Shown here: positions 9,255 through 64,000 of the stretch, piece by piece
Layout of the letters: each line of letters starts with the position of its first letter
Position numbering within the stretch: position 1 is the stretch's first letter
Origin: a virus
IMG/VR virus record: IMGVR_UViG_3300027782_003601
Location: 112,193-176,192 of that record
Reading direction: 5' to 3' (one strand)
DNA: 64,000 bases
Position numbers and translations under genes: made by a program
Notes under the pieces: generated by a model
Seen by the model: the letters and a program-made list of their open reading frames with translations, nothing else
Databases searched by the model: none
Told to the model about the DNA's origin: nothing

Positions 9255-9255
9255 T

Positions 9256-9711: not shown

Positions 9712-9712
9712 T

Positions 9713-10825
9713 ATGTCTACTAACCCATTAAGAAAATCCGATAGGATTCTACAATCAAAATCTACAAAAGAAGATATAAAACAAAGTATATCTCTTTTTG
9801 ATATAGATTATGCAATGATGTCTTATTTAGAAGATACGGCATTGCCTACATTAGATAATAATGGTGTTGGATTAAAAATACCTGTAATTTATGGTAATTC
9901 GGAAAGATGGAATGGTGCAAGAAGACAGGGTGTATTTAGAGATGATAAAGGTAAAATTCAATTACCTTTAATGATGATTCGTAGAACATCAATTGCAAAG
10001 GATGACCAAATGCCAATGCTAAATAGACATGTTTCATATTCCGGTATTACAAAATATTCAAAAGATAATAAATACGATAGATTTACATTATTGGGTAAAA
10101 ATGTACAACCTAAATATGAAATTTATAAAATACAAATGCCAGAATATGTTGAATTAAACTATGATTGTATGGTTTGGACTTCATATACAGAACATTTAAA
10201 TGCAGTAATAGAGCAATTACAATATACAGGAACTTATTGGGGAGATAAAGATAAATTTAAATTTAGAACAACTATTAGTGATTTTAATGTTGTAAATGAA
10301 GTTGGTGAGGGAACGGAAAGAATTAATAGAGTTGAATTTAGTTTATCAGTAAAAGCGTATTTACTTCCAGAAAAATTTGATGGTCAAAATACAACTAAAA
10401 AATCATTTTCTACAAAAAGAATTGTTGTTGCAACTGAAACCGATGTAACTGCAAATGGTAGATTAGAAGGGATGTTAACTACCCCATCTCCATATTATGA
10501 TAATAAAGATTTAATTGATTTTTTATCTATAAATAATAGTAAAACACAAAACCCAATTTCAAATAATACTATTACATTCACATCAATAAAAGCAATAAAA
10601 ACACCATCGCAATTGACATCGGTTGTAACTTCAGGAATGACATATGGTTCAGATGTATATGATATAAAATTATACATAAATGGTGTTAGAGTATTACAAT
10701 CAACTAAATTTACAGTTGTAATAAGTGCTACATCCATTGTGGTAACATTTTTGCCAGCAGGAATTGGATACAACGTAACATCTACAGATGAAATTGCAAT
10801 AACAGGTAAATTTATAGATGTATAA
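9713..10825 (+). CDS. Tail terminator/sheath stabiliser (T4 gp15-like) with C-terminal beta-sandwich extension
   Basis: IPVIYGNSERW, LPLM, PEYVELNY and VKAYLLP motifs. Confidence 0.75.
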   Translation: MSTNPLRKSDRILQSKSTKEDIKQSISLFDIDYAMMSYLEDTALPTLDNNGVGLKIPVIYGNSERWNGARRQGVFRDDKGKIQLPLMMIRRTSIAKDDQMPMLNRHVSYSGITKYSKDNKYDRFTLLGKNVQPKYEIYKIQMPEYVELNYDCMVWTSYTEHLNAVIEQLQYTGTYWGDKDKFKFRTTISDFNVVNEVGEGTERINRVEFSLSVKAYLLPEKFDGQNTTKKSFSTKRIVVATETDVTANGRLEGMLTTPSPYYDNKDLIDFLSINNSKTQNPISNNTITFTSIKAIKTPSQLTSVVTSGMTYGSDVYDIKLYINGVRVLQSTKFTVVISATSIVVTFLPAGIGYNVTSTDEIAITGKFIDV

Positions 10826-11172
10826 TGAAACGAAATATTTTAGATATAACACAAACTATAAGTAGAAAACCTGGAAATGCAATATTAACACCTTATAATT
10901 TAAAGGATTCTACTTATTGGATTTTTGAAGCAAAGGGTTGGAGATTTAAATCTATTTTAAGAGAAATAGAATTTAGAGAAACTCAAAATAGATTAAATAT
11001 TCACATAAATACTCAAAATATAAGTCCAAAAGATTATATTGCAGAAGATGGACCTACTGGATTATTAATAAAATTTATAAAAAATAATTTTGAAATGTAT
11101 ATTATTGATGGGAACTCATTGGATGGTGGAGATTTTATAGAAATAAAAGGAGATATAGAAAAATATGCTTAA
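10825..11172 (+). CDS. Hypothetical virion protein
   Basis: 115 aa; C-terminal DFIEIKG resembles the gp15 extension (DEIAITG). Confidence 0.55.
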   Translation: MKRNILDITQTISRKPGNAILTPYNLKDSTYWIFEAKGWRFKSILREIEFRETQNRLNIHINTQNISPKDYIAEDGPTGLLIKFIKNNFEMYIIDGNSLDGGDFIEIKGDIEKYA

Positions 11173-11836
11173 TAAATTTTCATCAAATGCTAGAAAATTA
11201 AATAGAATCATTCCAAAAGTTAATTTTAACAATTTGAATGATTCTTTATATATTACTGCTAGTCTTTTAAATGTAGAATTACCATCATCATCTTCGTATC
11301 AATCTAATACACGACAAAACCCATTTGGTCCAACTGTTATTAATACAAATAATATTAATGATAGTTTGTATACAACTGCTAGTTTACAAAATATAGAATT
11401 GCCATCATCATCTTCATACCAATCGCATACTCGTTCTAATTCAAATCCAATAAAAGTTATAAACAACAAACAAACTATAGAAGATTTTCATAATGAAATA
11501 TTTGAACATAGTGTTAGATATGTTGAAAGAAAAGTTGATGAATTTAATAATGATTTAAATACATTAACAATGTATAATGTATTTTTAGATTATGGTACGG
11601 AAGGTGCTAATTCGGATAATTTTGAAATATTTGTGTTTGGATTGCAAATACCGGGAGATTATACAATTGTGGAAATAAATAATAATGTTGTAATAAGTTT
11701 AAATGATGAGTATATAGATTTTGATAATGTTACACTTGATGATATTTATGTTATAGGTAAAATAGTAGAAATTGGTTTGAATTCTGAAGATTATTTTGGT
11801 TTAACAACTGAAAATGATGAAAATATAATATTGTAA
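11165..11836 (+). CDS. Hypothetical virion protein with internal duplication
   Basis: NNxNDSLYxTASLxNxELPSSSSYQSxTR occurs twice; ends LTTENDENIIL. Confidence 0.6.
   Translation: MLNKFSSNARKLNRIIPKVNFNNLNDSLYITASLLNVELPSSSSYQSNTRQNPFGPTVINTNNINDSLYTTASLQNIELPSSSSYQSHTRSNSNPIKVINNKQTIEDFHNEIFEHSVRYVERKVDEFNNDLNTLTMYNVFLDYGTEGANSDNFEIFVFGLQIPGDYTIVEINNNVVISLNDEYIDFDNVTLDDIYVIGKIVEIGLNSEDYFGLTTENDENIIL
11228..11433 (+). repeat. Imperfect direct repeat, 120-nt period, in frame
   Basis: 11228-11313 vs 11348-11433 encode near-identical 29-aa segments. Confidence 0.8.
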
Positions 11837-11838
11837 AA

Positions 11839-13920
11839 ATGACAAATAAAAGTAAAAAAATATCGGATTTACCTTCATTAAGCCCCGCATCATTGGATAC
11901 GACTTATGTAGTTGGGATATCAGGTAGTACAACTTATAAGATTTCCATAAATCAATTAACATCTTCATTAGATAGTGTATTTGCAACCGATTTAGCAGCT
12001 GCTGCATTGAGTAGTTCAAATGCAATAATGTATCAGACAGCATCAGCGGCATCAACTTGGACATTTAATCACTTTTTGGCAACTAAATATCCTATTGTAA
12101 ATGTTTATGATAACAACGATAATATTATAATTCCACAATCAATAGTAGCAAACAATAGTAGTTCTTTAACAATAACATTTTCATCACCAAGAACAGGTAC
12201 TGCGGTAGCATCTAAAGGAGGATATGTAGGTTCGGCGGTAGGAAATGCCACAACCGCAAATGCATTAGCAACTGGTAGATTAATAAATAATACCCTATTT
12301 GATGGTACACAAAACATAACAATACCTAATTTAGTTTCGGGTTCAACCCAAATTTCATTAGCAGGTACATCTGATTATAATAGTTTATTTGCAGGGGTTG
12401 CATCATCAACGGCATCATTAAATGTATTTACTTCATCAATAAACAGATGGAGTAGTTCTTTAGCAACAACTGGTTCTAATACATTTATAGGAAATCAAAT
12501 AATAACTGGTTCTTTATTTGTTTCTGGAACTATATTACAAAATGGTGGTGGATTAGCAGTTCAAGATGGTACAATTTTATACCATAGTTCTTCTAATTGG
12601 TTTATTCCAACATCAACTGTTAGTACATCGGGTACAATTGCAACTTCAGTTGGTACTCAGTTTACATCGGCAATGATTGGTGCTAAATTAACCATACTAA
12701 GAGAAAGTAAAATAATAACCGCATTTACATCAAATACACAAGTAACGGTTGATTCTGCCTACTCACAAAACTATAGTTCAATTCCATCTGGTAGTTGGGG
12801 AGTTTGTAGTAAAGCATTTGAAATACAATCTGATAGCAGTATTTATTATTACAATAAAACTGGTGCAGTTGTTTTTGGTAAACGTTCCGATTCAAATGTA
12901 TATGCTGCTAATTTATTATCAACTTCCGGTGATTCATTTTATTTATTGGTAAATTCATTTGGAATAAATAAAAACTTTACTATAAATTGGTCTGATGATA
13001 CATCTGGTGTTAATACCAAAAGTATAGGTTTAAGAAGAAACAATACTGGTTCTTTAGAAATATATGATGGAAATACTGTAGATGGGGCGGTTGCAAATAG
13101 AAGAGATTTAATTGCTAGAGATATTACGGGTTCAAATGCTACATTTAGTGGTTCGTTTAATATAACTGGTTCATTAACAATGTCTGGTGATATTATACCT
13201 TCAGCAGACAATATTAGGTCATTGGGAAAAGCAAATTTTGATTATAATACTGTATGGGCAAGAAAAGTAAGAAGTTCGGGAGGATTAACATTCCAAACAG
13301 ATAATTATAATTTATATTCTGGCACATCATTTACAGAAATATTAAGAATTAATGCGGTATCTAGTAGTTTTATTTTTCAAAATGGAGGTACATTTAATGA
13401 TAATGGATATCGTATACAAATAAACGCATCTGGCTCTGCATCGGGTTCATTATTCGTATCCGGTTCATCTGTATTTTCTGGTTCAATTAATATTAGTAGT
13501 GGTTCAATTACAATGCCAAATAGACCTGCATTTAGAGTGTATGGAGCAGGTGGAGCAACTTCGGCAATAACTACATTATCTGGTAGTATGACAACAATTG
13601 ATTATAATCAAGGTGGTTGGGATAATACAACGGGCACATTTACTGCACCAATTGCAGGATTATATCAAGTAAATTTAGTTTGTAGAACAAATTCAAATTC
13701 AGGTTCGGCAGCACAAATTGTAGTATTTAAAAATAATACAGGTGGTGCTAGTGGAACTGCACAAGTAATGATAGAGTGGGCTTCAAATACAAGTATGAAC
13801 CACACAGGTGGTTCTACTATTTCTAAATTAGCAGTAGGAGATACATTAAAAGCAGTAGTATCGGTTGGAACAATTACATTTGATGCAAACGATAATTTTT
13901 CAGTAGCATATATTGGATAA
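11839..13920 (+). CDS. Fibre protein with C-terminal C1q/TNF-like domain
   Basis: N-terminal KKISDLP; C-terminal PAFRVY...TGTFTAPIAGLYQV...GDTL...FSVAYIG is a C1q signature. Confidence 0.75.
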   Translation: MTNKSKKISDLPSLSPASLDTTYVVGISGSTTYKISINQLTSSLDSVFATDLAAAALSSSNAIMYQTASAASTWTFNHFLATKYPIVNVYDNNDNIIIPQSIVANNSSSLTITFSSPRTGTAVASKGGYVGSAVGNATTANALATGRLINNTLFDGTQNITIPNLVSGSTQISLAGTSDYNSLFAGVASSTASLNVFTSSINRWSSSLATTGSNTFIGNQIITGSLFVSGTILQNGGGLAVQDGTILYHSSSNWFIPTSTVSTSGTIATSVGTQFTSAMIGAKLTILRESKIITAFTSNTQVTVDSAYSQNYSSIPSGSWGVCSKAFEIQSDSSIYYYNKTGAVVFGKRSDSNVYAANLLSTSGDSFYLLVNSFGINKNFTINWSDDTSGVNTKSIGLRRNNTGSLEIYDGNTVDGAVANRRDLIARDITGSNATFSGSFNITGSLTMSGDIIPSADNIRSLGKANFDYNTVWARKVRSSGGLTFQTDNYNLYSGTSFTEILRINAVSSSFIFQNGGTFNDNGYRIQINASGSASGSLFVSGSSVFSGSINISSGSITMPNRPAFRVYGAGGATSAITTLSGSMTTIDYNQGGWDNTTGTFTAPIAGLYQVNLVCRTNSNSGSAAQIVVFKNNTGGASGTAQVMIEWASNTSMNHTGGSTISKLAVGDTLKAVVSVGTITFDANDNFSVAYIG

Positions 13921-13929
13921 AATAAAATA

Positions 13930-14751
13930 ATGGCAATACAAATTACAAATGGATTTAGAGTACAAAGTACGAAAGATGGTATAACTGCTTTAACCGCCGG
14001 GATTTCGGCATTTCAAATTAAAACAGATTTTCCAACTGCAACCGATGGTTTATATTGGATACAAAACCCAAACATAAATAGTGGTAGTGCAGTTCAAGTA
14101 TATTGTGATATGACTACACTTGGTGGAGGTTGGACTTTAATTATGCAGAATAATTATTATGATTGGACTTTTTCAAATTGTTTGTTAAGAAATCAAACAT
14201 CAGCTCCTTCTACTTTGGCAGCAAATAATACATTAGGTAGTGCTGGTAGTAATGGTAATTATAGTATTATTGGTTGGGCGGATTATATTAAAAAATCGGC
14301 AAGTGGATTTGATTATATGTTAGATGCGCAATATAGAGGAAGAAATGGTGGTGCATGGACGGCTAATCAGCCATATAGTTTTGTAGGACAAGTTGATAAT
14401 GCAGCTTATAATGCTTCACCTTCAACTTATTTTGGTGGTGGTGGAAGTGTAATTTCAGGTAATGCTGGATTTCGTCAAGATATAACATTAATTTCTTCTT
14501 TTTATACTGGTGCAAGCGGTGTTGGGACTTGGAGTTATAGTGATGGTGGTATAGAAAAACGAATGCCGTGGTACGCAAATAATGGAAGTAACGCTTCATT
14601 TGTAGGTCAGGCTATCTTTACTACAACACATGATGATAATGGTTCGTGGTGGGGTACATTAATGATGACTGGTACTAATTTCTCCCCTGCACCTTGGCAA
14701 AATGATACCGGTGTAGGTAACCCCAATATTATTTGGTATTGGGTTAGATAA
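13930..14751 (+). CDS. Fibrinogen-related (FReD/NEC-like) domain protein, putative adhesin
   Basis: DGLYWI...QVYCDMTTLGGGWTLI motif. Confidence 0.75.
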   Translation: MAIQITNGFRVQSTKDGITALTAGISAFQIKTDFPTATDGLYWIQNPNINSGSAVQVYCDMTTLGGGWTLIMQNNYYDWTFSNCLLRNQTSAPSTLAANNTLGSAGSNGNYSIIGWADYIKKSASGFDYMLDAQYRGRNGGAWTANQPYSFVGQVDNAAYNASPSTYFGGGGSVISGNAGFRQDITLISSFYTGASGVGTWSYSDGGIEKRMPWYANNGSNASFVGQAIFTTTHDDNGSWWGTLMMTGTNFSPAPWQNDTGVGNPNIIWYWVR

Positions 14752-47078: not shown

Positions 47079-47109
47079 TTTGAAATGTAAATTATTTTTT
47101 GTATCTTTG
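47079..47109 (+). promoter_or_regulatory. Bacteroidota-type sigma-A promoter
   Basis: TTTG (47079-82), 19-nt spacer, TATCTTTG (47102-09). Confidence 0.75.
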
Positions 47110-47114
47110 TAGAT

Positions 47115-48374
47115 ATGAATATAATTGAGAAAGATAAAGATTTACACCTATTAAATCCAAAGGAGATTTTACTGATAGTTCCTGTATGGAGTTCTCAAAG
47201 GGGGCATCAATCAATGTTTCCAATTTCATTTGTATATATAAAAACCAAAGATACGGATTTTATTTTAAATTTCCAACACATAGATGCAGATTCCGTTACT
47301 CCATTTCCAATATCCAAACTCTGCAATCCAAATACATTAGTATTAGGAAACCGATATATCCAATCAATCGGACTTGATTATGAGTGGGTATACTTTGAAT
47401 CAGTAGGTAAACCATTTGTATTTAATGATTTTGCAGAAACTCTTTTTAAAGGGTATAGAAACGATTATCTTTTTAACAACGATTGTATTCCTCTTATGAA
47501 GTGGTACGAACTCTTAAAATTAATACCTGAAGGTTTTGAGATAAAGAATTGGTATCGTAAGTATTCAGATTCAATCTCCTTATTAGGAAAAGTGGAAGGG
47601 GCGGGGGTTGCAGTTGAAGTGGAAAATTTTATTGATAGATTTAGCTTCAATTCCCACTACATCAATGAGGGTAAGGTACACACACAATACAATCCATATA
47701 CCATTACGGGTAGACCATCTAATAGACATTTAAACGTAAACTACTCTGCTCTTCCTAAAGGTGATGGGAGTAGGGGAACTATCATTAGTAGGTGGAGTTT
47801 TGGGAGTTTAATTGGATTTGATTATGAATCGTATCATATCCGTTTGATTGCGGGGTTGATAGGGTATAAGTTTCCAACGGGTATATCTGCTCACCAATAT
47901 CTTGCAAACCATTATGGGTGTGATTACGAAACCTCAAAGGGATTAACCTTTAAGTATTTGTATGGGGGGTTGGATGAATTTGCAAGAGGGATACCATTCT
48001 TTCAAAAAGTAGATTCATATATAGAAAGTTTGTATCAACGGTATGTAATTTCGGGTAAGTTAACGACACCTCTATTTAAAAGAGAAATCCAACATAACCG
48101 AATTGAATCACCTAATCAACAAAAAATATTTAACTATCTTCTACAAGCATTAGAAACTGAAATAAACTATATGAAGATGGTAGAGATGTTAGAATTTATG
48201 AGTGGGATGAAATCAAAAATTGTTTTATATACTTATGATGCATTCTTAATCGACACTCACCCATCGGAGAGGGAAAGGATTTTGAACCTCCTACCGACCA
48301 TTATAGAAAAAGGTGGATTCCCCGTTAAAGTAGAGGAAGGAAAGAATTATGATAATTTAGTTCATTTACAATAA
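47115..48374 (+). CDS. Atypical short family-A DNA polymerase-like protein
   Basis: TGRPSN, motif A FDYESYHIR, motif B KGLTFKYLYGG, NYLLQ, motif C YTYDAF; only 419 aa. Confidence 0.8.
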   Translation: MNIIEKDKDLHLLNPKEILLIVPVWSSQRGHQSMFPISFVYIKTKDTDFILNFQHIDADSVTPFPISKLCNPNTLVLGNRYIQSIGLDYEWVYFESVGKPFVFNDFAETLFKGYRNDYLFNNDCIPLMKWYELLKLIPEGFEIKNWYRKYSDSISLLGKVEGAGVAVEVENFIDRFSFNSHYINEGKVHTQYNPYTITGRPSNRHLNVNYSALPKGDGSRGTIISRWSFGSLIGFDYESYHIRLIAGLIGYKFPTGISAHQYLANHYGCDYETSKGLTFKYLYGGLDEFARGIPFFQKVDSYIESLYQRYVISGKLTTPLFKREIQHNRIESPNQQKIFNYLLQALETEINYMKMVEMLEFMSGMKSKIVLYTYDAFLIDTHPSERERILNLLPTIIEKGGFPVKVEEGKNYDNLVHLQ

Positions 48375-48418
48375 AATTTATATTTATACAATATACAGAA
48401 ATACAAACATATAAAGGT

Positions 48419-48832
48419 ATGAAAAAAACTATATTGAAAGAAATTAAAGAAATGAATAAAATTGCAGGTACTAAAATGACCAAAGAGCAAGAAATTTCTT
48501 TTATTAAAAATCGTTTAAATGAATTAGAATTTAATTCTCAAAAAGAATTAGATGATTATAAAAAAAATCATAAAGTAAGACCTGGAACTAAATTAACAGT
48601 AGCACCTTTAACAAAAAGAATAGGTAATGCAGTTTCCAAAGGAACGGAAAAAGCTGCCGATGCTATTGGTAAAGTAATCTATACAACTAAATTAGGTAAT
48701 TCTACTATGAAAGGAGCACTTCGTATAGGAAACAAAGTTGCTAATAAATTAGGATTGGGTGGTATGACTGACAAAGAAAGTGATGCAGAAGTAGATGCAT
48801 GGAAAAGAATTTATAGTAAAAAGAAAAAATAA
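48419..48832 (+). CDS. Basic hypothetical protein, putative internal virion protein
   Basis: Late motif at 48380; N-terminal ILKEIKEMNKIAG resembles the scaffold C-terminus KKLAG; internal LNE. Confidence 0.5.
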   Translation: MKKTILKEIKEMNKIAGTKMTKEQEISFIKNRLNELEFNSQKELDDYKKNHKVRPGTKLTVAPLTKRIGNAVSKGTEKAADAIGKVIYTTKLGNSTMKGALRIGNKVANKLGLGGMTDKESDAEVDAWKRIYSKKKK

Positions 48833-51015
48833 TGTATCCAAATTTTGAAGAGATATTAGAAGAGTTAAGTTATAAGGTAGGGATTGTGGATTTAACAAAC
48901 GAATCCCACAAACAAATATTGGTAAAACTTTTAAGAGAAAGAGGTATAGATTCTGCACAACAACTTACAGATAGAGCATCTGTTGTATTTGAGTATATAA
49001 AAGAAGAAACTAAGAAAGACCCGGCACTTTCTGCAATGCCAAAAGATGGTGGTAAGTTGGTTTACTTTGGTAGTAAGGAAGCAAAAGCAGATGCATTAAA
49101 AGCAGGAACTCACACAGAACCAACATCTCCAAAAACAGCTACACCACAAACTGCACCAAAAGTAGATATTGGGGTTAGTAGTGCTGAAAAGAATGCAAAA
49201 CCAACTCCAACAGAACCAACAACCAAAACCGTAACAAAAGCACCTAAAGAATTAGATGACAAGCAAGAAAAAGTTAGACAAAATTTAAACAACGGAGATT
49301 TATCAGAACTTATTAAAACATCGGATGAAGTAAATGATTTAAGAGATAGGGGTATTGCGGGAGCAGGTGGTTCAGTTGCATCATACGGTGAAATGGCATT
49401 GACACGTGCTGCAAATGATTTAAAAGGAGATGGGTATTCTAAATTTAAAGAAACTAATAAAGAAGCAATTGAAGTAGAAAAGAAAAATATTCTTGCAAAC
49501 TCAAAAGCAAATGCTAGAAAAGTTAAAGAAGTTTCTAAACAATTGGGATATAAATTACCTGAAGATGAAGAAAAGGTTATTGAATATATTGCAGAAAGAA
49601 AAGTATATGGTGATTTAGAGTTAGAAAGATTAAAATCCAACCCTAACTCCCTTTGGCATAATAAAGGTACTAAAGGTTTTAATCAACCTGATGAAGCCAA
49701 AAAAGAAATCGCATTTAGAAACTGGGCTGATGCTGAATTTGATGGGGCACTTGCTACTTTATATGAGATTGAAAATAGTAGTAATATTGATACATCACAA
49801 CCATATCATGTAATTCAAAATAATCCATTAAAAGGTGGTGCAGATGATGCAATATATACTCATTTAATTGATAAGTTAGAAGAAGCAAAAAAATCTGGAA
49901 ATGCAGATGATATTAAACATTATGAACAAGAAATCAGAGCATTTGAGAAATTAGGATTCCATGATACTATGGCAATTGGTAAAGATAAAAATGGAAGAAC
50001 TACCATATTGCATATTACAAATAAAAAAGCAAATGATTTGAAAGATATGTGGGCAAACACTACTCCTGAGTATATGTTGGCTAGTATCATAAAACAATTT
50101 GGTCCAGAAGTATCCGAAGCAGTAGTAAATTTTGCAAAAGATGGTATTGAAAGATGCAAAGATGGTAAGCAAGCAACTAATAGAGCGTTTGCATCTATGA
50201 AAATTGATGAAAATTTTGTTAAAATTAGTGAAACTGAAGAAATGCAACCATATATGAATGCTTTAAAAGAACAAAAAGAATTCAATAAATGGGCTAAGTC
50301 AAACGGTGTGGATTTAGAAACGGCATCAAATGCGGAAGTTTTAGCAGCTACTCAACAATATATAAAATCGGAAGAAGCGAAAGGTAAAACAGTTGGTTAT
50401 AAAAAATTTGGTAAAGTTCTTACAAAAGTTGGTGAATTTGCACAAACTACAAAAATGAAACAAAAATATACTGATATAGATTTTAATTCAGAATCAGTTG
50501 CATCGGCAGTTAAGAATAAAAATGATGAAAAAGATTTAGTTTCAGCGGTTCATACCGATATGGTAAATGAAATTTCTAAAGCTGATAAAGAAAAAGGATT
50601 TCCAGATAAAGATGGAAATAATGGTCCTCACACAGAAGCATATATTACAACAGTATTTCATTCAATGCACTTTGATTTAATGGTTGAAAACTTTGATAAT
50701 AGTTTAGCAGCAGTAACTGGTATTAGAGGAAGTAGACCTGCTGATTTTAGAGGATGTTTAGCAGAATTAAGTGGATTTAAAGGAGATATTGAATCGGAAG
50801 AAGGAAGAGCAAAATTAAATCAACACCTATTAAAGAAGTGTAAAATAAACGCAACTACTGGATTTATTGAAATTACAAGTCCAAACGGAACGGTTTCATT
50901 AGCAGAAGATAGTTGGAGAACATCGGGTGAAAGTAAAAAAGTTGAGAAAAAATTAGGTGATGGGTTGAGTCAATGTGTTGCTTCAAAAGTAGATAGTAGA
51001 AAAAGTAGTAAATAA
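48832..51015 (+). CDS. Large hypothetical protein, putative internal/ejected virion protein
   Basis: 727 aa; N-terminal leader ending IKEE, then a Pro/Thr linker and a globular region. Confidence 0.5.
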   Translation: MYPNFEEILEELSYKVGIVDLTNESHKQILVKLLRERGIDSAQQLTDRASVVFEYIKEETKKDPALSAMPKDGGKLVYFGSKEAKADALKAGTHTEPTSPKTATPQTAPKVDIGVSSAEKNAKPTPTEPTTKTVTKAPKELDDKQEKVRQNLNNGDLSELIKTSDEVNDLRDRGIAGAGGSVASYGEMALTRAANDLKGDGYSKFKETNKEAIEVEKKNILANSKANARKVKEVSKQLGYKLPEDEEKVIEYIAERKVYGDLELERLKSNPNSLWHNKGTKGFNQPDEAKKEIAFRNWADAEFDGALATLYEIENSSNIDTSQPYHVIQNNPLKGGADDAIYTHLIDKLEEAKKSGNADDIKHYEQEIRAFEKLGFHDTMAIGKDKNGRTTILHITNKKANDLKDMWANTTPEYMLASIIKQFGPEVSEAVVNFAKDGIERCKDGKQATNRAFASMKIDENFVKISETEEMQPYMNALKEQKEFNKWAKSNGVDLETASNAEVLAATQQYIKSEEAKGKTVGYKKFGKVLTKVGEFAQTTKMKQKYTDIDFNSESVASAVKNKNDEKDLVSAVHTDMVNEISKADKEKGFPDKDGNNGPHTEAYITTVFHSMHFDLMVENFDNSLAAVTGIRGSRPADFRGCLAELSGFKGDIESEEGRAKLNQHLLKKCKINATTGFIEITSPNGTVSLAEDSWRTSGESKKVEKKLGDGLSQCVASKVDSRKSSK

Positions 51016-51072: not shown

Positions 51073-51480
51073 ATGAATACACAGTTATTATGTCTCTTTA
51101 CTACCAAAGAAGAACTAGATAAATCATTAGAATTCGTTCTAAACCAATATATACTTACAAATCCAAACGTTTTTGTATTAGAAAGCAAAACAAATTTAGG
51201 AGAACTTTACATTACATTTAATGTAGAAAAGGGTTCTTCCGCAATTTCTTCCGAATGGAAGACAATTTTAGTTCATAGAAAAAAACAATCCAATACAATC
51301 TACACTATCAACGCACTTAATGAAGTTGTTAAATCAAAAACAGGTGGTATGTTAGATAATACTTATCAATTAGAGTGGGATGAATACAAAAATTGTATCA
51401 TCACAACATCTCCAACAGGATACAAAAAAATTCCTACAAAAGTTTTTAAAGCAATTAATATAGATAATTTGGAAAATTAA
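51073..51480 (+). CDS. Hypothetical phage protein
   Basis: 135 aa; HRKKQSNTIYTINALN. Confidence 0.6.
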   Translation: MNTQLLCLFTTKEELDKSLEFVLNQYILTNPNVFVLESKTNLGELYITFNVEKGSSAISSEWKTILVHRKKQSNTIYTINALNEVVKSKTGGMLDNTYQLEWDEYKNCIITTSPTGYKKIPTKVFKAINIDNLEN

Positions 51481-51937: not shown

Positions 51938-52291
51938 ATGACAGAAACACAAATGCCTGAAGCAATTGCATATTGCGAAGAAATGTATCCACAAACAACG
52001 GATGAATTTAAAAATATTTTAGATGAGATGTATCTTACATTTTGTAAGAAACAAAGAAACTACGGACCTGGAAACATCTCAGTAGGAACTACTTTACAAA
52101 CCAAAGAAGATATTAAGTTATCATTAACAGGATTGTGGTTTAGACAAAACGATAAAATAAACAGATTAAAACAATTAGTAGTTATGGGGCAACCAGATGA
52201 AGTTGGAGAATCTGTTGAAGATACTTACCAAGACCTTGCCGTATATTCCGTAATTGCTCAATTAGTGAGTAGAGGAAAGTGGGCAAAATAA
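51938..52291 (+). CDS. Nucleotide-modification-associated domain 1 (DUF1599/Nmad1-like)
   Basis: KKQRNYG...RQNDKINRL...ESVEDTYQDLAVYSVIA. Confidence 0.75.
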   Translation: MTETQMPEAIAYCEEMYPQTTDEFKNILDEMYLTFCKKQRNYGPGNISVGTTLQTKEDIKLSLTGLWFRQNDKINRLKQLVVMGQPDEVGESVEDTYQDLAVYSVIAQLVSRGKWAK

Positions 52292-52423: not shown

Positions 52424-53275
52424 ATGGATATTTCATTAGCATTAAAGAGATTTAGCTCTCTTCAAACAAACACAAAGAAATCGGATTCAATCTGGAAACC
52501 GGCAAACGGAAAATCTCAAATCCGTTTAGTACCTTACAAATTTAATAGGGATAATCCTTTTATTGAATTGTATTTTCATTACAACATTAATAACAAAACT
52601 TATTTATCTCCAATTTCATTTGGTAGACCTGACCCAATCGTAGAGTTTGCAGAAAAACTTAAACGTACAGGTGATACAGATGATTGGAAAGCAGGTAAGA
52701 AGATGGAGCCAAAATTAAGAACATTTGCACCAGTTATTGTTAGAGGTAAAGAAAATGAAGGTGTAAAATTTTGGGGATTTGGTAAGACTGTATATCAAGA
52801 TATTTTAGGATATATTGCAGACCCGGATTATGGTGATATTACAGACCCACATTCAGGACGTGATATTGTATTAGAAGTAGTATCTGCCGAAGAATCAAAT
52901 GCAGCATACCCAACAACTACAATCAGAGTTAAACCTGCGGTATCTAAAATTTTATCAGATGCAGAAGCAGTAACTGAATTATTGAACTCACAAAAAGATA
53001 TTACGGAATTATATTCTGAATTATCTTATGCAGAATTGAAATCAGTATTAGAAAATTGGCTAAACCCAACTGCAGGAGCAAATGGAGATAGTGATGAGGT
53101 TGTTGCTGAATTAGAAGCACCAAAATCAAAACCATCCGGCATCATTCCCGAATCAAAACCAGTAATAGATACACTACCTTGGGATGATGGAATTTCTTCA
53201 GCTCCCGCACCAAAAGCAGCAGTAACAACAAAAGATGATGTTACTTCGGCATTTGATGATTTATTTAACAACTAA
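52424..53275 (+). CDS. Single-stranded DNA-binding protein (T4 gp32-like)
   Basis: WKP...IR, NPF, GVKFWGFGK, DITDP..GRD; acidic tail ending FDDLFNN. Confidence 0.85.
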   Translation: MDISLALKRFSSLQTNTKKSDSIWKPANGKSQIRLVPYKFNRDNPFIELYFHYNINNKTYLSPISFGRPDPIVEFAEKLKRTGDTDDWKAGKKMEPKLRTFAPVIVRGKENEGVKFWGFGKTVYQDILGYIADPDYGDITDPHSGRDIVLEVVSAEESNAAYPTTTIRVKPAVSKILSDAEAVTELLNSQKDITELYSELSYAELKSVLENWLNPTAGANGDSDEVVAELEAPKSKPSGIIPESKPVIDTLPWDDGISSAPAPKAAVTTKDDVTSAFDDLFNN

Positions 53276-53287
53276 AAAAAGTTACAA

Positions 53288-54391
53288 ATGGCAAAAAGAG
53301 AAGATGATTTAGCAAGTTTACTTGCCGATTCTCTAAACAAACAAAATAAGGATGGGAAGATTGCCTATTTCTTAGACGATGATAGTTCGGATGCACCGAC
53401 AAACGTCAAAGATTGGTTATCTACGGGAAACGCAATGTTAGATGTTGCAATCTCAAACAGACCTTATGGTGGATTGCCAGTTGGTAGAATAACAGAAATA
53501 ACGGGTTTAGAGCAGAGTGGAAAATCTCTGCTCTCTGCCCATTTATTAGCTGAAGCACAACGTAAAGGTGGTGTTGCAGTTCTGATTGATACCGAAACCG
53601 CAGTTAGTAGAGAATTTTTAGAAGCAATTGGAGTGGATATTTCCAAACTCCTTTATGTTTCAGTAGATACCGTTGAAGGTATTTTTGAAGCTTGTGAAAC
53701 AATTATTGAGCAAGTTCGTAAGGGTGATAAAGATAGACTAGTTACAATCGTAGTAGATTCAGTAGCAGCAGCATCTTCAAAGAAAGAGATGGAAGCTGAT
53801 TATGATAAAGACGGTTACGCAACTGATAAGGCAATCATCATTTCAAAAGCAATGAGAAAGATTACCAATATGATTGGTAGACAATCTATTGCGTTAGTAT
53901 TCACAAACCAATTAAGACAGAAGATGAACGCAATGTTTGGAGACCCGTGGACAACATCGGGTGGTAAAGCATTGGCATTCCACGCATCTGTTAGATTGAG
54001 ATTGAAGAATATGGGACAATTAAAAGCAGGAGATAGAATCGTAGGTATTAAGGTTCGTTGTCAGGTTATCAAAAACAGAATGGGACCTCCTTTAAGACAC
54101 GCAGATTTTGATATTTTCTTTGATAGAGGTATTGATAATTATGGTGGATGGATTTCAGTTATGAAAGAGCAAAAATTGGTAAAACAAGGTGGTGCTTGGT
54201 ACACATATACTGATATTGCTTCAGGTGAAGAAATTAAATTTCAAGCAAAAGACTTTGTATCTATTTTAGAAGATGAGGAATTGAAAGACCAAATCTATCG
54301 TAGAATTTGCGAAGCAACTATTTTACAATACAAAACATCAGCATCAGAGGAAGTTGAAATAACAACGGATGAAGGCAATGAGTCAGATTAA
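53288..54391 (+). CDS. recA: RecA/UvsX recombinase
   Basis: Walker A GLEQSGKS; IDTE, VVDSVAA, NQLR, GGKALAFHASVRL, KNR. Confidence 0.95.
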   Translation: MAKREDDLASLLADSLNKQNKDGKIAYFLDDDSSDAPTNVKDWLSTGNAMLDVAISNRPYGGLPVGRITEITGLEQSGKSLLSAHLLAEAQRKGGVAVLIDTETAVSREFLEAIGVDISKLLYVSVDTVEGIFEACETIIEQVRKGDKDRLVTIVVDSVAAASSKKEMEADYDKDGYATDKAIIISKAMRKITNMIGRQSIALVFTNQLRQKMNAMFGDPWTTSGGKALAFHASVRLRLKNMGQLKAGDRIVGIKVRCQVIKNRMGPPLRHADFDIFFDRGIDNYGGWISVMKEQKLVKQGGAWYTYTDIASGEEIKFQAKDFVSILEDEELKDQIYRRICEATILQYKTSASEEVEITTDEGNESD

Positions 54392-55436
54392 CAGAAGGTA
54401 TTTAGATATACTAAAACAAATAGATAAAGAACATAATGAATTTGGTGATTTACATCGTAACTCCAAAACATTAATTATTGATGGTCTTAATACTTTCATT
54501 CGTTCTTGGTCAACTGCTCCAAATCTTAATGATAATGGAGACCACATAGGAGGCATAGTCGGTACTTTAAAAAGTATCGGCTACGCAATCCGTACAATCA
54601 ATCCTACCCGATGCATTATTGTATTTGATGGTAAAGGTGGTAACAAAAGCAGACAAGATATATACTCTGGTTACAAAGCAGATAGAGGCAACAACAAAAT
54701 CAAAATGAGATTGAATCGTGCTGCATCTGTTGAAATGAATCCGGAAGAGGAAAGTCAATCTATAAGAAGACAAATGGTCGGATTAGGTGAATTACTGTCT
54801 TCTTTACCAGTATCCATTATGATTTATGATGGGATTGAAGCGGATGATGTTATTGCTTATATTACTACTCAATTAAAAAAAGAAGATGAGAAGATTGTGA
54901 TAATGAGTTCCGATAAAGATTTCATTCAATTGGTAAATAAAGATGTGAGTGTTTATTCGCCATCTAAAAAGAAAATCTATAATATACCAGAAGTGGTAGA
55001 AGAATTTGGTATTCATCCACACAATTTTATCAATTTCAGAATGATTGATGGTGATAAATCTGATAATTTAAATGGGTTACCTGGATTAGGATTAAAAACA
55101 ATTATAAAAAACTTTCCAATATTAAGTGAAGAAACGGTACAAACTACTGAATCTTTATTAGAATTTATCAAAGAGCAACCAAAGAAAACAAAAGCTTACG
55201 ATTTATTTGAAAATAACTTGGAAATATTAAAAAGAAATCGTAAATTGATGCAATTATCCGAACCAGAATTTAGTGGTACTCTTCGTATGAAGATTATAGA
55301 TAGATACAACGAAAATACTGTTAAGTTTGATAAGCAAGGTTTCTTAAAATTGGGATTAAAGCATAAAATATTAGATGCATTCCCTAACATAACCGATTGG
55401 TTACAAAGTACATTTTTACACATTTCACAATTTTAA
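54369..55436 (+). CDS. 5'-3' exonuclease/flap endonuclease (T4 RNase H-like); alternative start 54378
   Basis: IDG, FDG, YKADR, EADDVI, SSDKDF and GDKSDN..G..GLG.KT motifs. Confidence 0.92.
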   Translation: MKAMSQINRRYLDILKQIDKEHNEFGDLHRNSKTLIIDGLNTFIRSWSTAPNLNDNGDHIGGIVGTLKSIGYAIRTINPTRCIIVFDGKGGNKSRQDIYSGYKADRGNNKIKMRLNRAASVEMNPEEESQSIRRQMVGLGELLSSLPVSIMIYDGIEADDVIAYITTQLKKEDEKIVIMSSDKDFIQLVNKDVSVYSPSKKKIYNIPEVVEEFGIHPHNFINFRMIDGDKSDNLNGLPGLGLKTIIKNFPILSEETVQTTESLLEFIKEQPKKTKAYDLFENNLEILKRNRKLMQLSEPEFSGTLRMKIIDRYNENTVKFDKQGFLKLGLKHKILDAFPNITDWLQSTFLHISQF

Positions 55437-55771: not shown

Positions 55772-55990
55772 ATGAAGTGTATTAAAAGTAAAGAAGGAGA
55801 AATCCGCAGAGTAAAAGAAGAGGAAGCAGATTTAAAAGTATTACAATATGGTTGGGTGTTTGTTCCTAAATCAGAATGGAAAGCATTACGAAAACCAAAG
55901 AAAACCGACGTAGTTAACGACCAAGCTACCGACGTAGCTGAATTATCAATTGAGGAAAAAAGATTAGCTAGAAAGAAAAAAAATAAATAA
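55772..55990 (+). CDS. Small basic hypothetical protein
   Basis: 72 aa; GWVFVPKSEWK. Confidence 0.55.
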   Translation: MKCIKSKEGEIRRVKEEEADLKVLQYGWVFVPKSEWKALRKPKKTDVVNDQATDVAELSIEEKRLARKKKNK

Positions 55991-57348
55991 TGGAAGCAGT
56001 AGATACATTGGTAAAGTATGGACAATCGTATCAATCTAAAGTAGTTGCTTCTCTTATATCAGATGTAAAATTTTTAGAGCAGGTAAGTGAAATCACCAAA
56101 GCCGCATTCTTTGAATCCGAAGCAAATAAATGGATTATAAACGAAGTAATTGATTACTTTGGTGAATATCGTGCAGTACCAACAATGGAGGTTTTCAAAA
56201 TCAAAGTTGGTACGATTGAGGATAAAGGATTAAAACAAACAATTATTGAACAACTTAAAAATGTGTATCAACAATTGGAGGCAAATGATTTGCCTTATGT
56301 TAAAAACGAATATCTTACATTTGCTAAAAATCAAAAAGTAAAAGATGCTCTTTTAAAATCTGTTGAATTATTAAAGTTAGGTCAATACGATAGAATTATT
56401 GACACTATGACAGCAGCATCCAAAGTAGGTGTTGAATCCGATTTAGGTTTAGATTACATTGAAGAATTTGAATCAATTATGGAGGACGTAAAAAGAGATT
56501 CAGTACCTACTGGATGGGATGTGATTGATGAACTAATGGATGGTGGGTTAGGACCAGGAGAATTGGGAGTAGTTATGGCGCCATCTGGAATCGGTAAGAG
56601 TTGGTTTTTATCTAAAATAGCTTGTTCAGCATTACAAAGAGGAATTGATGTATTACATTATACATTGGAATTATCTGAAAGTTATGTAGGTCAAAGATAT
56701 ACAACAATCCTTACTAATATTGGAACATCCGAACATAAGGATAGAAAGGATGAAGTTATTAGAAAAATTAAAGCAGTTCCTGGTAGAGTTCGTATTAAAT
56801 ATTATCCACCACAATTCGCATCAGCTAAAACCCTATCTGCTCACGTTGAGAAGATGAGACAAATTGGTTTTAATCCAAAACTTATTATTATTGATTATGC
56901 CGATTTATTAAAATCCGGAAATGGTAGTAGAGATGGGTTGTATGCAGAGTTGGGTGGAATCTATGAGGAGTTGAGAGGATTGAGTGGTATTGCTAAAATA
57001 CCCATATGGACTGCAACACAAACTAATAGAGCAGCAATTGACCACGAGGTTATTCAAGCAGATTCGGTTGGGGATTCTTATAAGAAAGTTCAAACTGCTG
57101 ATTTTATTATGAGTGTTAGTAGAAAGACTAAAGATAAGTTATCAAACACAGGTCGTATTCACATCGTTAAAAATCGTTTTGGACCAGATGGATTAACATT
57201 TCCTGCAAAGATTGATACGTTTACAGGTGTTATGGATGTGTTTGCAGCTTCATCCGCAGATGGTATGGCATCTACTAGAGATAGTAAAAATGGAGAGGGA
57301 TTGGAAAAGAAATTACTACACAAAAAGTATGTTGATAATATGGGATAA
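55990..57348 (+). CDS. dnaB: Replicative DnaB-family helicase (T4 gp41-like)
   Basis: APSGIGKS, TLE, IIDYADL, TATQTNR and KNRFG motifs. Confidence 0.93.
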   Translation: MEAVDTLVKYGQSYQSKVVASLISDVKFLEQVSEITKAAFFESEANKWIINEVIDYFGEYRAVPTMEVFKIKVGTIEDKGLKQTIIEQLKNVYQQLEANDLPYVKNEYLTFAKNQKVKDALLKSVELLKLGQYDRIIDTMTAASKVGVESDLGLDYIEEFESIMEDVKRDSVPTGWDVIDELMDGGLGPGELGVVMAPSGIGKSWFLSKIACSALQRGIDVLHYTLELSESYVGQRYTTILTNIGTSEHKDRKDEVIRKIKAVPGRVRIKYYPPQFASAKTLSAHVEKMRQIGFNPKLIIIDYADLLKSGNGSRDGLYAELGGIYEELRGLSGIAKIPIWTATQTNRAAIDHEVIQADSVGDSYKKVQTADFIMSVSRKTKDKLSNTGRIHIVKNRFGPDGLTFPAKIDTFTGVMDVFAASSADGMASTRDSKNGEGLEKKLLHKKYVDNMG

Positions 57349-61298: not shown

Positions 61299-61499
61299 AT
61301 GTTAAGAGGTGAAGCGCATCCAATGCACAAATTGACTGAAGAGCAAATATTGCAAATCAGAGATTTATGGAAAATAGGTCATAGAAATATTAGAGTTATA
61401 TCCAGAAACTATGGAGTTTCACCTGCTAATATAAAAAAAATAGTTACGAACAAAACATGGACACACATGATAAAGTGGCCTTATGAAAGAACTCAATAA
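61299..61499 (+). CDS. Stand-alone HTH of the type found C-terminal to HNH homing endonucleases
   Basis: RGEAHPMHKLTEEQILQIR...YGVS...I.KI....TW.H; no HNH motif; ATG 61299 preferred over GTG 61266, which lies inside the promoter. Confidence 0.65.
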   Translation: MLRGEAHPMHKLTEEQILQIRDLWKIGHRNIRVISRNYGVSPANIKKIVTNKTWTHMIKWPYERTQ

Positions 61500-62247
61500 G
61501 TTATATTGTGATACATCAAAATTAGTTGTAAGGCAAGTAAACAAAAATATAGCAAAAGATATCATTGTCAATAACCATTATAGTGGTATATGGACGAAGG
61601 TATCTTATGCTATTGGTTTGTTTCATGTATCAAATGATGAACACAAATTCTTTGGTGGAGTTAATGAAAAACTTATTGGAGTAGCTTGTTATGGTGACCC
61701 AGTTGGTAGACATTCCGGCGCATCAATTTCGGAACTATTGGATAGAACTGAAGTATTGGAATTGACACGATTATTTGTATTTGATGGATATGGTTCTAAC
61801 ATTGAAAGTTGGTTTGTTGGTAAATCATTTGAATGGTTGAGAAAAAATGTACCACATATTAAAGCATTGGTATCATATTCAGACCCAAAAGCAGGTCATT
61901 TAGGAACTGTATATCAAGCAACAAATTGGATTTATCAAGGAAATAGAATCAGACCAAATGATAGTTGGTCTTTTAAATGGAGTGAGGATGATGAATGGCA
62001 TCATAGTAGAACATCATTTGTAAGATATGGTACTAATGACCCAAAAGCAATTCAAACAATGGTATCAATGCCATTTTGGATTAAGAAAGAACCGAGAAAA
62101 CATCGTTATGTTTATATACTTTTGAATGGTAGAGAAAGAAAGAAATTATTAAAATCTTTAAAGTATCCATCATTACCATACCCAAAAGCAAAGGAGGAAT
62201 TTATTGAAGAAATACATAAATTAGAACCAATTGAAAGAATTAAATAA
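61483..62247 (+). CDS. mom: Mom-like (GNAT-fold) DNA adenine modification protein, copy 1
   Basis: NHYS, LELTRL, NIESWF, SYSD...H.GTVYQATNW.Y.G, KHRY. Confidence 0.8.
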   Translation: MKELNKLYCDTSKLVVRQVNKNIAKDIIVNNHYSGIWTKVSYAIGLFHVSNDEHKFFGGVNEKLIGVACYGDPVGRHSGASISELLDRTEVLELTRLFVFDGYGSNIESWFVGKSFEWLRKNVPHIKALVSYSDPKAGHLGTVYQATNWIYQGNRIRPNDSWSFKWSEDDEWHHSRTSFVRYGTNDPKAIQTMVSMPFWIKKEPRKHRYVYILLNGRERKKLLKSLKYPSLPYPKAKEEFIEEIHKLEPIERIK

Positions 62248-63034
62248 GTTATATTGTGATACGAGCAAAGTATCTATTAGAGAAATCAATAGTAATGTAG
62301 CCAAAGAGATTATAGTTAAAAAACACTATACTCACGCTTGGACTGCTTGTAGATATGCATTAGGTATATTTTACAAAACTGATAATCAAAATGTAATTGG
62401 TGATGATGAAATCCTAATTGGATGTATGGTTTATGGATTTCCAGTAGGAGCTAGAGCATCTACATCGGTATGTGAGGGATTGACAAAAGATAACATTTTA
62501 GAATTGACACGATTATATTGCGATGATGGTTATGGTTCTAATATTGAATCATACTCATTAGGACAATCATTCAAATGGTTTAAAGAAAATGATAAAGCAA
62601 TTAAAGTATTAATTTCTTATGCAGATAATGGACAAGAACATTTGGGTGGTATTTACCAAGCAACAAATTGGATTTATCAGGGATTAAATACAGATATTGC
62701 TTTAATGCCAAATTATGGTATTTCATTATCGGATTCCCCATTCAAATGGATTCATAGTAGGACTGTATTTACCAAATGGGGTAGTGGTAATTTAGAACAT
62801 CTTCGTAGAGAAATCGGTAAAGATGGTTATAAACAATTTTGGAGAAGAGAAGAGCCACCAAAACATAGATACATACAAATCATAGGAGCAGATAAAAAAG
62901 ATAAAAAAGATTTGATTAAGAGGTTAAAACATGAGGTTAGACCCTATCCTAAGAATGCTAGAGAATACAATAAAGGAGTAGAAATGCACACTACAATAGA
63001 ACCGGATTCAGAAATATCCGTTAAGTTTTGGTAA
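62231..63034 (+). CDS. mom: Mom-like (GNAT-fold) DNA adenine modification protein, copy 2 (TTG start)
   Basis: KHYT, LELTRL, NIESY, SYAD...HLGGIYQATNW.Y.G, KHRY; paralog of the preceding gene. Confidence 0.8.
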   Translation: MKELNKLYCDTSKVSIREINSNVAKEIIVKKHYTHAWTACRYALGIFYKTDNQNVIGDDEILIGCMVYGFPVGARASTSVCEGLTKDNILELTRLYCDDGYGSNIESYSLGQSFKWFKENDKAIKVLISYADNGQEHLGGIYQATNWIYQGLNTDIALMPNYGISLSDSPFKWIHSRTVFTKWGSGNLEHLRREIGKDGYKQFWRREEPPKHRYIQIIGADKKDKKDLIKRLKHEVRPYPKNAREYNKGVEMHTTIEPDSEISVKFW

Positions 63035-63058
63035 TACCAATAATTTTTCGTATATTTG
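63027..63058 (+). promoter_or_regulatory. Bacteroidota-type sigma-A promoter
   Basis: TTTG (63027-30), 20-nt spacer, TATATTTG (63051-58). Confidence 0.7.
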
Positions 63059-63184
63059 ATAACATTGTTGCAACAATAGTGGTTAATCAACACTTAAAAC
63101 TGATTAGAAAAGGTCATTATCTTTGTGGTAATAAGCACCCGAACTTGGACCTTAAATTTATTAAATAACTAAAAAAGACTAAAA

Positions 63185-64000
63185 ATGTCAAAAACAAAAC
63201 AAAACGCTCCCGTCATTGAAGGCGTTACCGAAAAATTTGATGAATTATACCCTGTAAACTTATTAACATATGGGGAAGATAATTATGATTTGTATTACGA
63301 TAAAGATGATAGTTCGTATTATACAGATTTAAAAGCATCCATATATGACTATGGATTAAAATCTCCAATACTTGTATATTCAACAGATGAAGTTAAATCT
63401 GGAAATACAAGATTGAGAGCGTGTATTGAATTAGGATATGAATATATTCCTATTGTTCGTTCAATATTAGATAAGCCAAAGGATAAATTTTCTAACCTTA
63501 TGGCTTTACAAATGGAAAATCAAACCAGACCTAGTAATCTTCGTAGACAATACAACCAAATATACAAAACCATTTCAGCATATGAACAGGTTAATAATAA
63601 AACTTGTTCGGCTAATATTATTGAAAAAGAGATTTGTACAGCTGCACAAATGAGTTACAATCAATATAAAAATCTTTCTACTTTAGAATCAAACAGACCT
63701 GATTTATTTCAACGAGTAATTGATAGTAATGGTTCTAAACTTTCCCCTGGAAAAGCTATTGAGCTAATGAAGCAAGATTTATTAAAATCAAAACAACTTA
63801 ATATATCCAAAGCTTTAGAAAACGCTGTTACTAGAGAAGATGTAACATATGCAGTTAATGCTGTTTCAAATGCATTAAATACAATGTTTGGTGTTAAAAT
63901 TAATGGTAGAGATGGTAGTCAAATTAATGCATTCAATAACATACAACAAAATACAATAGGTGGTTTAGTTCATGAAGTATTTACTAATGCTATTGCACAT
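63185..64000 (+). CDS. ParB/Sulfiredoxin-like N-terminal domain protein, 3'-truncated by the window (absent from the ORF track)
   Basis: Own translation: LKASIYDYGLKSPILV...SGNTRLRACIELG...IPIV...ENQTR; open to the window end. Confidence 0.75.
   Translation, partial: MSKTKQNAPVIEGVTEKFDELYPVNLLTYGEDNYDLYYDKDDSSYYTDLKASIYDYGLKSPILVYSTDEVKSGNTRLRACIELGYEYIPIVRSILDKPKDKFSNLMALQMENQTRPSNLRRQYNQIYKTISAYEQVNNKTCSANIIEKEICTAAQMSYNQYKNLSTLESNRPDLFQRVIDSNGSKLSPGKAIELMKQDLLKSKQLNISKALENAVTREDVTYAVNAVSNALNTMFGVKINGRDGSQINAFNNIQQNTIGGLVHEVFTNAIAH

Follow-up and report, generated by a model that had tools for sequence, protein, structure and literature searches.

A thumb-truncated family-A polymerase with an invariant histidine gate in an uncultured large phage: a divPolA1 member with a probable accessory role

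What part can a family-A polymerase play in phage replication when most of its thumb is missing and a histidine stands where Pol I has its steric-gate glutamate? The question is raised by an open reading frame (ORF) of 419 codons plus stop (47115..48374, + strand) in a 64,000-nucleotide (nt) stretch of DNA, hereafter the window, which is the right-hand 64 kb of the 176,192-bp viral record IMGVR_UViG_3300027782_003601 (31% G+C). The record is linear, has an estimated completeness of ~92%, carries nearly all of its genes on one strand and belongs to a large myovirus, with T4-type portal, major head protein, sheath and baseplate genes. An earlier note, made from the letters of the sequence, had read the ORF product as a thumb-less, non-processive enzyme with altered substrate choice and possibly not a replicative DNA polymerase. 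Here we place it in a published phage family, divPolA1, and propose with moderate confidence that it is an accessory, template-directed, non-proofreading DNA polymerase of low processivity, which would use deoxyribonucleoside triphosphates (dNTPs) and synthesize short patches for a replication-recombination module.

Membership of the divPolA1 family and the polymerase site

Among cultured phages, tblastn matched the protein to gp001 from Flavobacterium phage vB_FspM_immuto (hereafter immuto; 30% identity, E 2e-27), annotated as 'DNA polymerase family A', and a profile of the family aligned with immuto gp001 from end to end (hhalign probability 100%, E 1e-81, 434 columns). The profile represents 127 homologues, each ~30% identical to the query, and an alignment of that number of representatives supplies the counts out of 127 given below. 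Matching motifs, with the histidine gate and the Tyr-Asp pair, are present in immuto gp001 (DFDGYHLRL, Y-xxx-K and LYTYDAF). The group was named divPolA1 in a study listing 14 phages (PMC11348598; Virol J 2024;21:200), and in the literature the name is used by that paper and its preprint alone. Its members are described there as having conserved palm catalytic residues, a truncated thumb and replacements at all three exonuclease aspartates, as lying in a conserved context of replication genes, as coexisting with a regular polymerase and as probably retaining DNA polymerase activity. With its homology to immuto gp001, conserved palm aspartates, truncated thumb, replaced exonuclease aspartates and downstream replication genes, the present protein is a member of this family. 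It shares with immuto gp001 the length class, the truncated thumb, the inactivated exonuclease lobe and a downstream module of single-stranded-DNA-binding protein (SSB), recombinase, 5'-3' exonuclease, DnaB and ribonucleotide reductase (RNR), and nothing essential sets it apart from the published group beyond its origin in an uncultured phage and its modest identity to the immuto protein.

The family is large, comprising >1,700 homologues of 419-423 amino acids (aa) in a 90%-clustered collection and 992 clusters at 50% identity, nearly all of 410-470 aa. Pfam returned no family-A match from the query protein itself, PF00476 being reached by many of its homologues, and a paralogue search of the genome found no second divPolA1 copy. 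The palm and fingers half (residues ~185-419) was also matched by tblastn, at 33-36%, in the jumbo phage LR756508 (484 kb) and in a cyanophage, Microcystis phage Mel-JY01 (PP395634 50946-51620), where the matches are annotated as hypothetical or are unannotated; the family may thus extend to additional divergent branches.

Alignment to Pol I bore out the earlier note's account of the active site, namely that both catalytic aspartates and the K758, F762 and Y766 equivalents are kept and that E710 has become His, R754 Tyr and the motif C triplet HDE YDA. Coordinates written with two dots refer to parts on the + strand. Motif A (LIGFDYESYHIRL; 47808..47861) holds the catalytic D236 and, at D+5, the histidine gate H241 (codon 47835-47837), and is paired by phmmer against PDB sequences with LVALDYSQIELRV of Taq. 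Motif B, on the O-helix (YETSKGLTFKYLYGG; 47925..47969), contributes K275, F279 and Y283, with Y271 at K-4, the position of the Pol I arginine. In motif C (VLYTYDAFLID; 48216..48254), Y374-D375-A376 replaces H-D-E, VLYTYDAFL being paired by phmmer with LLQVHDELV. The block GKVHTQY..TGRPSN (47670..47723) carries R200, and a helix at 48123..48161 carries K337, N340 and Q344 together with E347. The family profile reaches Klenow at E 2e-11, aligning ES-K-xx-TF-xx-LYG with RRSAKAINFGLIYG and, for the following helix, KLFNYxxQ with AAINAPMQ. In Klenow numbering, the equivalents of D705, K758, F762, Y766, D882, R668, R682, N845 and Q849 are kept, and the changes are E710 to His, R754 to Tyr, H881 to Tyr, E883 to Ala and R841 to Lys. 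The DNA minor-groove sensors are retained, with R200, K337, N340 and Q344 standing for R668, R841, N845 and Q849.

Conservation across the family applies to kept and replaced positions alike. R200, D236, H241, K275, Y283, Q344, E347, Y374 and D375 are invariant (127/127), and F279 is present in 124 of the 127. At the R754 position 94 sequences have Tyr and just six Arg, and the residue after the motif C aspartate is Ser in 105 and Ala in 17. Measured against Pol I, the site has both aspartates and the Lys, Phe and Tyr of motif B; replaced are the Glu of the gate, the Arg of motif B and, in motif C, both His and Glu. Against four close relatives, the ratio of non-synonymous to synonymous substitution rates (dN/dS) was 0.12-0.18. 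Because the changes are invariant across the homologues and dN/dS is this low, the substitutions are a family signature and neither chance nor decay, which settles the earlier note's own conservation check in its favour. The published description of divPolA1 makes no mention of the steric gate, histidine, ribonucleotides, the Arg-to-Tyr change or Y-D-S/A (PMC11348598); the invariant histidine gate and the Tyr/Y-D-S pattern are new details, as are the family size and, as set out below, evolution faster than that of the family-B polymerase (PolB) and a promoter class shared with the primase.

The same figures bear on whether the protein is a catalytically dead structural or regulatory relic. Residues important in Pol I (E710, R754, H881 and E883) have indeed been replaced, as such a relic would allow, but both metal aspartates and the K758, Y766, Q849 and R668 equivalents are invariant over ~1,000 clusters, selection is purifying, and the replacements are themselves invariant, pointing to a working, altered site. 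We consider a dead relic extremely improbable.

Fold, truncated thumb and sugar choice

An AlphaFold2 model built on the 127-homologue alignment was predicted with high confidence (pLDDT 96.2, pTM 0.93), and its top Foldseek matches were all Pol I large fragments. Against ten family-A DNA polymerases the model gave Z scores of 21-22.5, with 376-408 residues aligned and the thumb reduced, including Pol nu (22.5), Klenow (22.2; 406 residues, 3.4 A), Pol theta (22.1), DpoZ (21.5) and T7 DNA polymerase (20.9); M. smegmatis Pol1, Aquifex Pol I, the apicoplast polymerase and phage G20c Pol I were further high-scoring matches. The mitochondrial, T7 and N4 RNA polymerases scored 8.8-12.8, so that in the structural comparison, which the earlier note had proposed as a check, the model resembled DNA polymerases far more than RNA polymerases. 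Klenow, KlenTaq and Bst share with the present protein the exonuclease lobe, the palm and fingers, motifs A, B and C and the minor-groove sensors, and differ from it in having ~80 more thumb residues, the Glu gate, R754 and HDE, at ~15% identity. The family profile aligned weakly with the canonical 778-aa Pol A of immuto (hhalign E 0.26), covering the polymerase domain alone.

The thumb remnant (residues 147-185; 47553..47669) is modelled as two short helices. Between VEGAGVAV (160-167) and GKVHTQY (186) lie 18 residues, where Pol I has ~100, much as the earlier note had reported. Some 75-85 thumb residues are missing, because the profile match covers Klenow 524-558, breaks off there and picks up again near 634.

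The N-terminal domain (residues 1-140; 47115..47534) is exonuclease-like. Taken alone, residues 1-160 resemble DEDD exonucleases, among them ExnV1 (Z 8.2), RRP6, RNase D and the Klenow exonuclease lobe. D-x-E is absent from strand 1, and no set of DEDD residues is conserved in this lobe; strand 1 ends in P-V-W, and Lys-Lys occupies the Exo II region. With a DEDD-exonuclease fold (Z ~8) present and the DEDD residues gone, the domain is a vestigial 3'-5' exonuclease, not an absent one: the earlier note had rightly seen no clear Exo motifs, and the fold is there nonetheless. The exonuclease lobe of KlenTaq is likewise vestigial. Exact equivalences of individual Exo residues rely on the structure-guided alignment in PMC11348598. 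Within the lobe, H31, H55, D/E57 and D88 are conserved at 92-98%, the acidic D/E57 and D88 at non-DEDD positions, and these residues could form a different metal or ligand site.

Fold and motifs together address the suggestion of altered sugar or substrate choice, by which the enzyme would be an RNA polymerase, a primase or an inserter of ribonucleoside triphosphates (rNTPs), 2'-modified or otherwise modified nucleotides. That the gate Glu has been replaced, as have the motif C Glu and the R754 equivalent, and that these replacements are fixed, would suit such a change. T7-like RNA polymerases have H-D-S as motif C, with Ser after Asp as in the Y-D-S of divPolA1, and the palm and fingers core is common to both. 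They nevertheless differ in having Gly at the gate, where divPolA1 has a bulky His, and divPolA1 has no promoter-binding N-terminal domain and keeps the F762 equivalent. With its exonuclease-like N-lobe, as in DNA polymerases, its histidine gate, its retained minor-groove sensors and a fold far nearer DNA than RNA polymerases, the protein does not have the features of a T7-like RNA polymerase. Barbaviruses encode a second divergent family-A enzyme, divPolA2, which also lies beside a regular PolB and is without exonuclease activity, and in which the authors see a possible RNA polymerase (PMC11348598). It differs at the N-terminus, where an unrelated globular domain stands in place of the exonuclease-like N-lobe of the present protein, and in its gene context, which varies, while that of the present protein is fixed among replication genes.

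The histidine itself can be judged from other polymerases. In PolD, H931 was established by mutagenesis and kinetics as a steric gate that excludes rNTPs and aids dNTP binding (PMC7708050), and the invariant H760 of Pol III alpha is a proposed steric gate (PMC8485763). In both, as presumably in divPolA1, His faces the incoming sugar; the folds are unrelated, and the analogy is a purely functional one. A change from Glu to His does not imply rNTP use, because His is a proven gate in PolD; by this analogy a bulky His at D+5 would be compatible with rNTP exclusion, and the invariant H241 most likely still excludes rNTPs. RNA priming by divPolA1, which the earlier note had put forward, is unlikely given the Pol I-type fold, the gate proven in PolD and a DnaG-type primase elsewhere in the genome.

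Modified nucleotides remain to be considered under the same heading. Phages of this group hypermodify their DNA: in immuto G is fully replaced by fdPreQ1, and two Mom-like genes and a DUF1599 gene are found here. The immuto modification is, however, installed by the transglycosylase DpdA, which was not found in this record, and no single modification system co-varies with the polymerase gene, which does not favour the incorporation of modified nucleotides as the earlier note had imagined it. We regard altered substrate choice as a whole as quite improbable.

Replication module, promoter and main replicase

The divPolA1 gene follows the last genes of the baseplate module, and five small or unknown genes separate it from a gp32-like SSB gene (52424..53275; PF08804, E 8e-17). 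There follow genes for a UvsX-like recombinase (53288..54391; phrog_97, E 2e-76), a 5'-3' exonuclease of the FEN or Pol I N-terminal-domain type (54369..55436; PF02739, E 3e-32; PF01367) and a DnaB-like replicative helicase (55990..57348; phrog_19, E 3e-75), then both RNR subunits, PhoH, two Mom-like proteins and a ParB-like protein whose gene runs off the end of the record. The order divPolA1, SSB, UvsX, FEN, DnaB and RNR is kept in ~80 loci and in immuto. The window contains no primase gene, as the earlier note had observed; the DnaG-type primase is encoded outside it, at genome 85433-86374. Just after the primase gene, at genome 86977-90138 (L005 6977-10138), lies a 1053-aa fusion of an SbcD-like metallophosphoesterase with an SbcC/SMC-type ATPase.

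In the 38-nt gap before divPolA1, ending 5 nt before the ATG, is an early-type promoter-like element, TTTG-N19-TATCTTTG (47079..47109), a pattern of the Bacteroidetes -33/-7 type. The + strand holds 12 copies of the full pattern, where shuffled sequences give 3.3 +/- 2.0. Six copies share the longer consensus TTTGGAAA..AAA..TTTTCGTATNTTTG and lie 4-47 nt before ORFs, four of them within 4-6 nt (genome 21488, 59317, 59670, 85397, 159271 and 163660, the last two being window 47079 and 51468); the genes that they precede include those for divPolA1 and the DnaG primase. This suggests an early or middle promoter class, possibly giving leaderless mRNAs, and the element at 47079-47109 would then act as a promoter. 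In the flanking units (42810 and 48419) the late motif ATATTTATA takes its place, and because of this difference divPolA1 is probably a separately timed unit between late genes. The earlier note's 'own host-type promoter' survives in part: the conserved element shared with the primase stands, whereas a generic sigma-70 scan around the gene gave 13 sites against 15.8 expected, not above chance. That divPolA1 might be a virion protein, as its place behind baseplate genes could imply, was considered and rejected, its promoter class being unlike that of the flanking late genes and the gene heading the replication module of immuto.

Is divPolA1 then the replicase of this phage? A full-size polymerase is encoded separately in each relative for which enough sequence is available, which makes it very probable, as the earlier note had suspected, that divPolA1 is not the main replicase. 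A PolB of 852-862 aa is encoded 17-22 kb downstream of divPolA1 in five relatives, G001 (complete, 202 kb), G003, G005, G007 and G008, and the complete genome of immuto encodes its 778-aa Pol A beside GroES/GroEL. The closest relative, G005, has a divPolA1 94% identical to the query and, ~19 kb downstream, a full-length PolB of the T4 gp43 type (phrog_262, E 8e-183), after which come the genes for dUTPase and the two clamp-loader subunits.

Searches of our own record with PF00136, PF07733 and PF00476 yielded no polymerase of family B, of family C or of the canonical family-A type, and the check for a separate polymerase and primase therefore gave the primase in the genome itself and the polymerase in relatives. 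Positions 147941-173448 of the record are collinear with G005, and the record ends 2.7 kb past this block. Beyond it, G005 has five different genes and then PolB, where our record has the Mom-like and ParB-like genes; the G005 PolB and the genes after it have no match anywhere in our record. The missing second polymerase is best explained by truncation of the record, because it stops within this island, short of the genes expected for PolB, dUTPase and the clamp loader. The island is variable in content: window 61300-64000 (the record end) corresponds to L095 (G005:C1) 8743-14344, between a 90-aa ORF and PolB, and holds the two Mom-like genes and the ParB-like gene here and genes for QueC-like and methyltransferase-like proteins in the 94%-identical relative.

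Rates of evolution separate the two polymerases as well. In the same genome pairs, divPolA1 is 62-67% identical, against 82-89% for PolB, 84-87% for DnaB and 89-91% for UvsX; its faster evolution is consistent with an accessory role in which constraint is looser, though still purifying. The converse arrangement would make divPolA1 the core replicase, its processivity supplied by a partner acting in trans, and would leave the accessory part to the swappable 'regular' polymerase of family A, B or C. Its proponents could point to the SSB-UvsX-FEN-DnaB module that divPolA1 heads, to the very conserved small neighbour p135 described below and to a gene context better conserved than the surroundings of the regular polymerases, among which one family can take the place of another (PMC11348598). 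A core replicase in these genomes of 160-240 kb would, on the other hand, have to work without thumb and proofreading; the PolB of the closest relative is full-length, T4 gp43-like and adjoins both clamp-loader subunits; and PolB is conserved like DnaB and UvsX, while divPolA1 evolves much faster. We hold this arrangement to be decidedly unlikely.

A specialised bypass polymerase, copying or extending on phage DNA whose damage or hypermodification stalls the main replicase, would also evolve faster than the replisome, and these phages carry diverse DNA modification systems. Pol nu and Pol theta, family-A enzymes that are exonuclease-dead, of low processivity and stationed beside main replicases, are moreover the top structural matches. 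Their Z scores are, however, tied with those of ordinary Pol I enzymes, and their sequence relationship to divPolA1 is no closer than that of Pol I. Pol nu and Pol theta have a full thumb, lineage-specific inserts and the Glu gate. The active site of divPolA1 retains the sensors of Watson-Crick geometry, and its conserved linkage is to SSB, UvsX, FEN and DnaB, not to modification genes. A bypass role is therefore credible but rather unlikely.

Several features around the locus merit description in their own right. The 135-aa neighbour p135 (51073..51480) accompanies divPolA1 at every locus whose flank is long enough and is 67-97% identical where divPolA1 is 59-95% identical (the 67% match being cut by a contig end); in immuto its homologue (42%) lies directly 3' of divPolA1. 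It is more conserved than the polymerase and contains a long invariant stretch, WKTILVHRKKQSN.IYTINALNEV, that AlphaFold cannot place: the model has pLDDT 65, its most conserved stretch (66-98) is unmodelled, and its matches are generic ferredoxin-, ACT- or RRM-like folds (Z <= 6.1). p135 may belong to the late unit starting at 48419. For the immediate neighbours (124, 137, 727, 135 and 109 aa), neither PHROG nor Pfam gave a usable match. At 48419-51015, behind the late motif ATATTTATA at 48380, lie the 137-aa ORF and the Lys/Glu-rich 727-aa ORF, which are 26-96% identical among relatives and have no family match; their products may be virion or internal proteins among replication genes.

The two Mom-like genes are in tandem (61483-63034), and the DUF1599 protein, a 'nucleotide modification associated' protein, is encoded at 51938-52291. 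This suggests that the phage hypermodifies its DNA, and by a route other than the 7-deazaguanine of immuto, since no DpdA/TGT is found in the record; for the same reason, 7-deazaguanine modification was rejected as a general explanation. Elsewhere in the record, at genome 98421-104887 (L006 421-6884), is a 1513-aa ORF with a cytidylyltransferase-like N-terminus, downstream of which a 381-aa ORF opens with an intein C-terminal splicing block (PF14890, E 6e-4).

A possible role in short-patch synthesis

Taken together, these results favour an accessory DNA polymerase. The enzyme would be Klenow-like, a family-A polymerase that has lost ~80 thumb residues and the catalytic residues of the 3'-5' exonuclease while keeping a complete polymerase site under selection. 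Template-directed DNA synthesis is indicated by the minor-groove sensors, the O-helix residues, the metal ligands, the DNA polymerase-like fold and the linkage to SSB, UvsX, FEN and DnaB. The missing thumb argues for low processivity, as the earlier note had proposed, and the dead exonuclease for the lack of proofreading, so that synthesis would be short and would go uncorrected. An accessory standing follows from the clamp-loaded PolB of the nearest relatives: bulk synthesis would fall to a separate clamp-loaded replicase, PolB in these and Pol A or Pol C in others. divPolA1 would then serve the module of SSB, UvsX, 5'-3' exonuclease, DnaB helicase and DnaG primase by making short patches, whether in gap filling after primer removal, in extension of primers or recombination intermediates, or in repair synthesis. 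In Pol I the 5'-3' exonuclease is fused to the polymerase; in this phage it is a separate gene, three genes downstream in the conserved module order, and the FEN-type gene and divPolA1 together resemble a split, KlenTaq-like Pol I. This resemblance makes gap filling after primer removal an attractive candidate, and extension of recombination intermediates or of primers could apply equally.

Several points weigh against this assignment. The R754 equivalent, which contacts the dNTP phosphate in Pol I, is Tyr in most of the family, and the motif C Glu has given way to Ser or Ala; the loss of both could affect triphosphate handling, and catalytic efficiency or substrate could therefore differ from those of Pol I. 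The case for a second polymerase in this phage, for which our own record returned no match, is built on the relatives and on the truncated record. The literature holds no biochemistry for any divPolA1 member, and none of the comparisons made here sets a short-patch role apart from others. Finally, the authors who named the family argue from its more conserved context for divPolA1 in replication and find the role of the 'regular' polymerase less obvious (PMC11348598).

An 'initiator' polymerase, which would extend DnaG primers or recombination intermediates briefly and then hand over to a processive A, B or C replicase, has some appeal and a low probability. Eukaryotic Pol alpha and the DnaE of Bacillus subtilis extend primers in this way before handing over. 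Such a role would explain why the main replicase is swappable and the divPolA1 module fixed, and why the promoter class is common to divPolA1 and the primase. Loss of the thumb would relax the need for a B-form primer-template duplex, and the histidine gate and the Tyr in place of R754 would be adaptations, possibly with relaxed sugar selectivity.

Whichever form of accessory synthesis applies, the locus yields a published family together with a few unreported residue-level details, and the biochemical role of a widespread enzyme is the interest that remains. divPolA1 is very widespread in aquatic phage metagenomes and always tied to the replication-recombination module. It is nature's own test of how much a Pol I-type enzyme can do without, with no thumb, no proofreading and three near-universal positions changed. 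If the histidine gate, the Tyr for R754 and Y-D-S/A alter sugar or substrate selectivity, the enzyme could be of use in biotechnology; should divPolA1 prove to be a polymerase for primer extension or hand-off, this would account for the swapping of main replicases between families in these phages.

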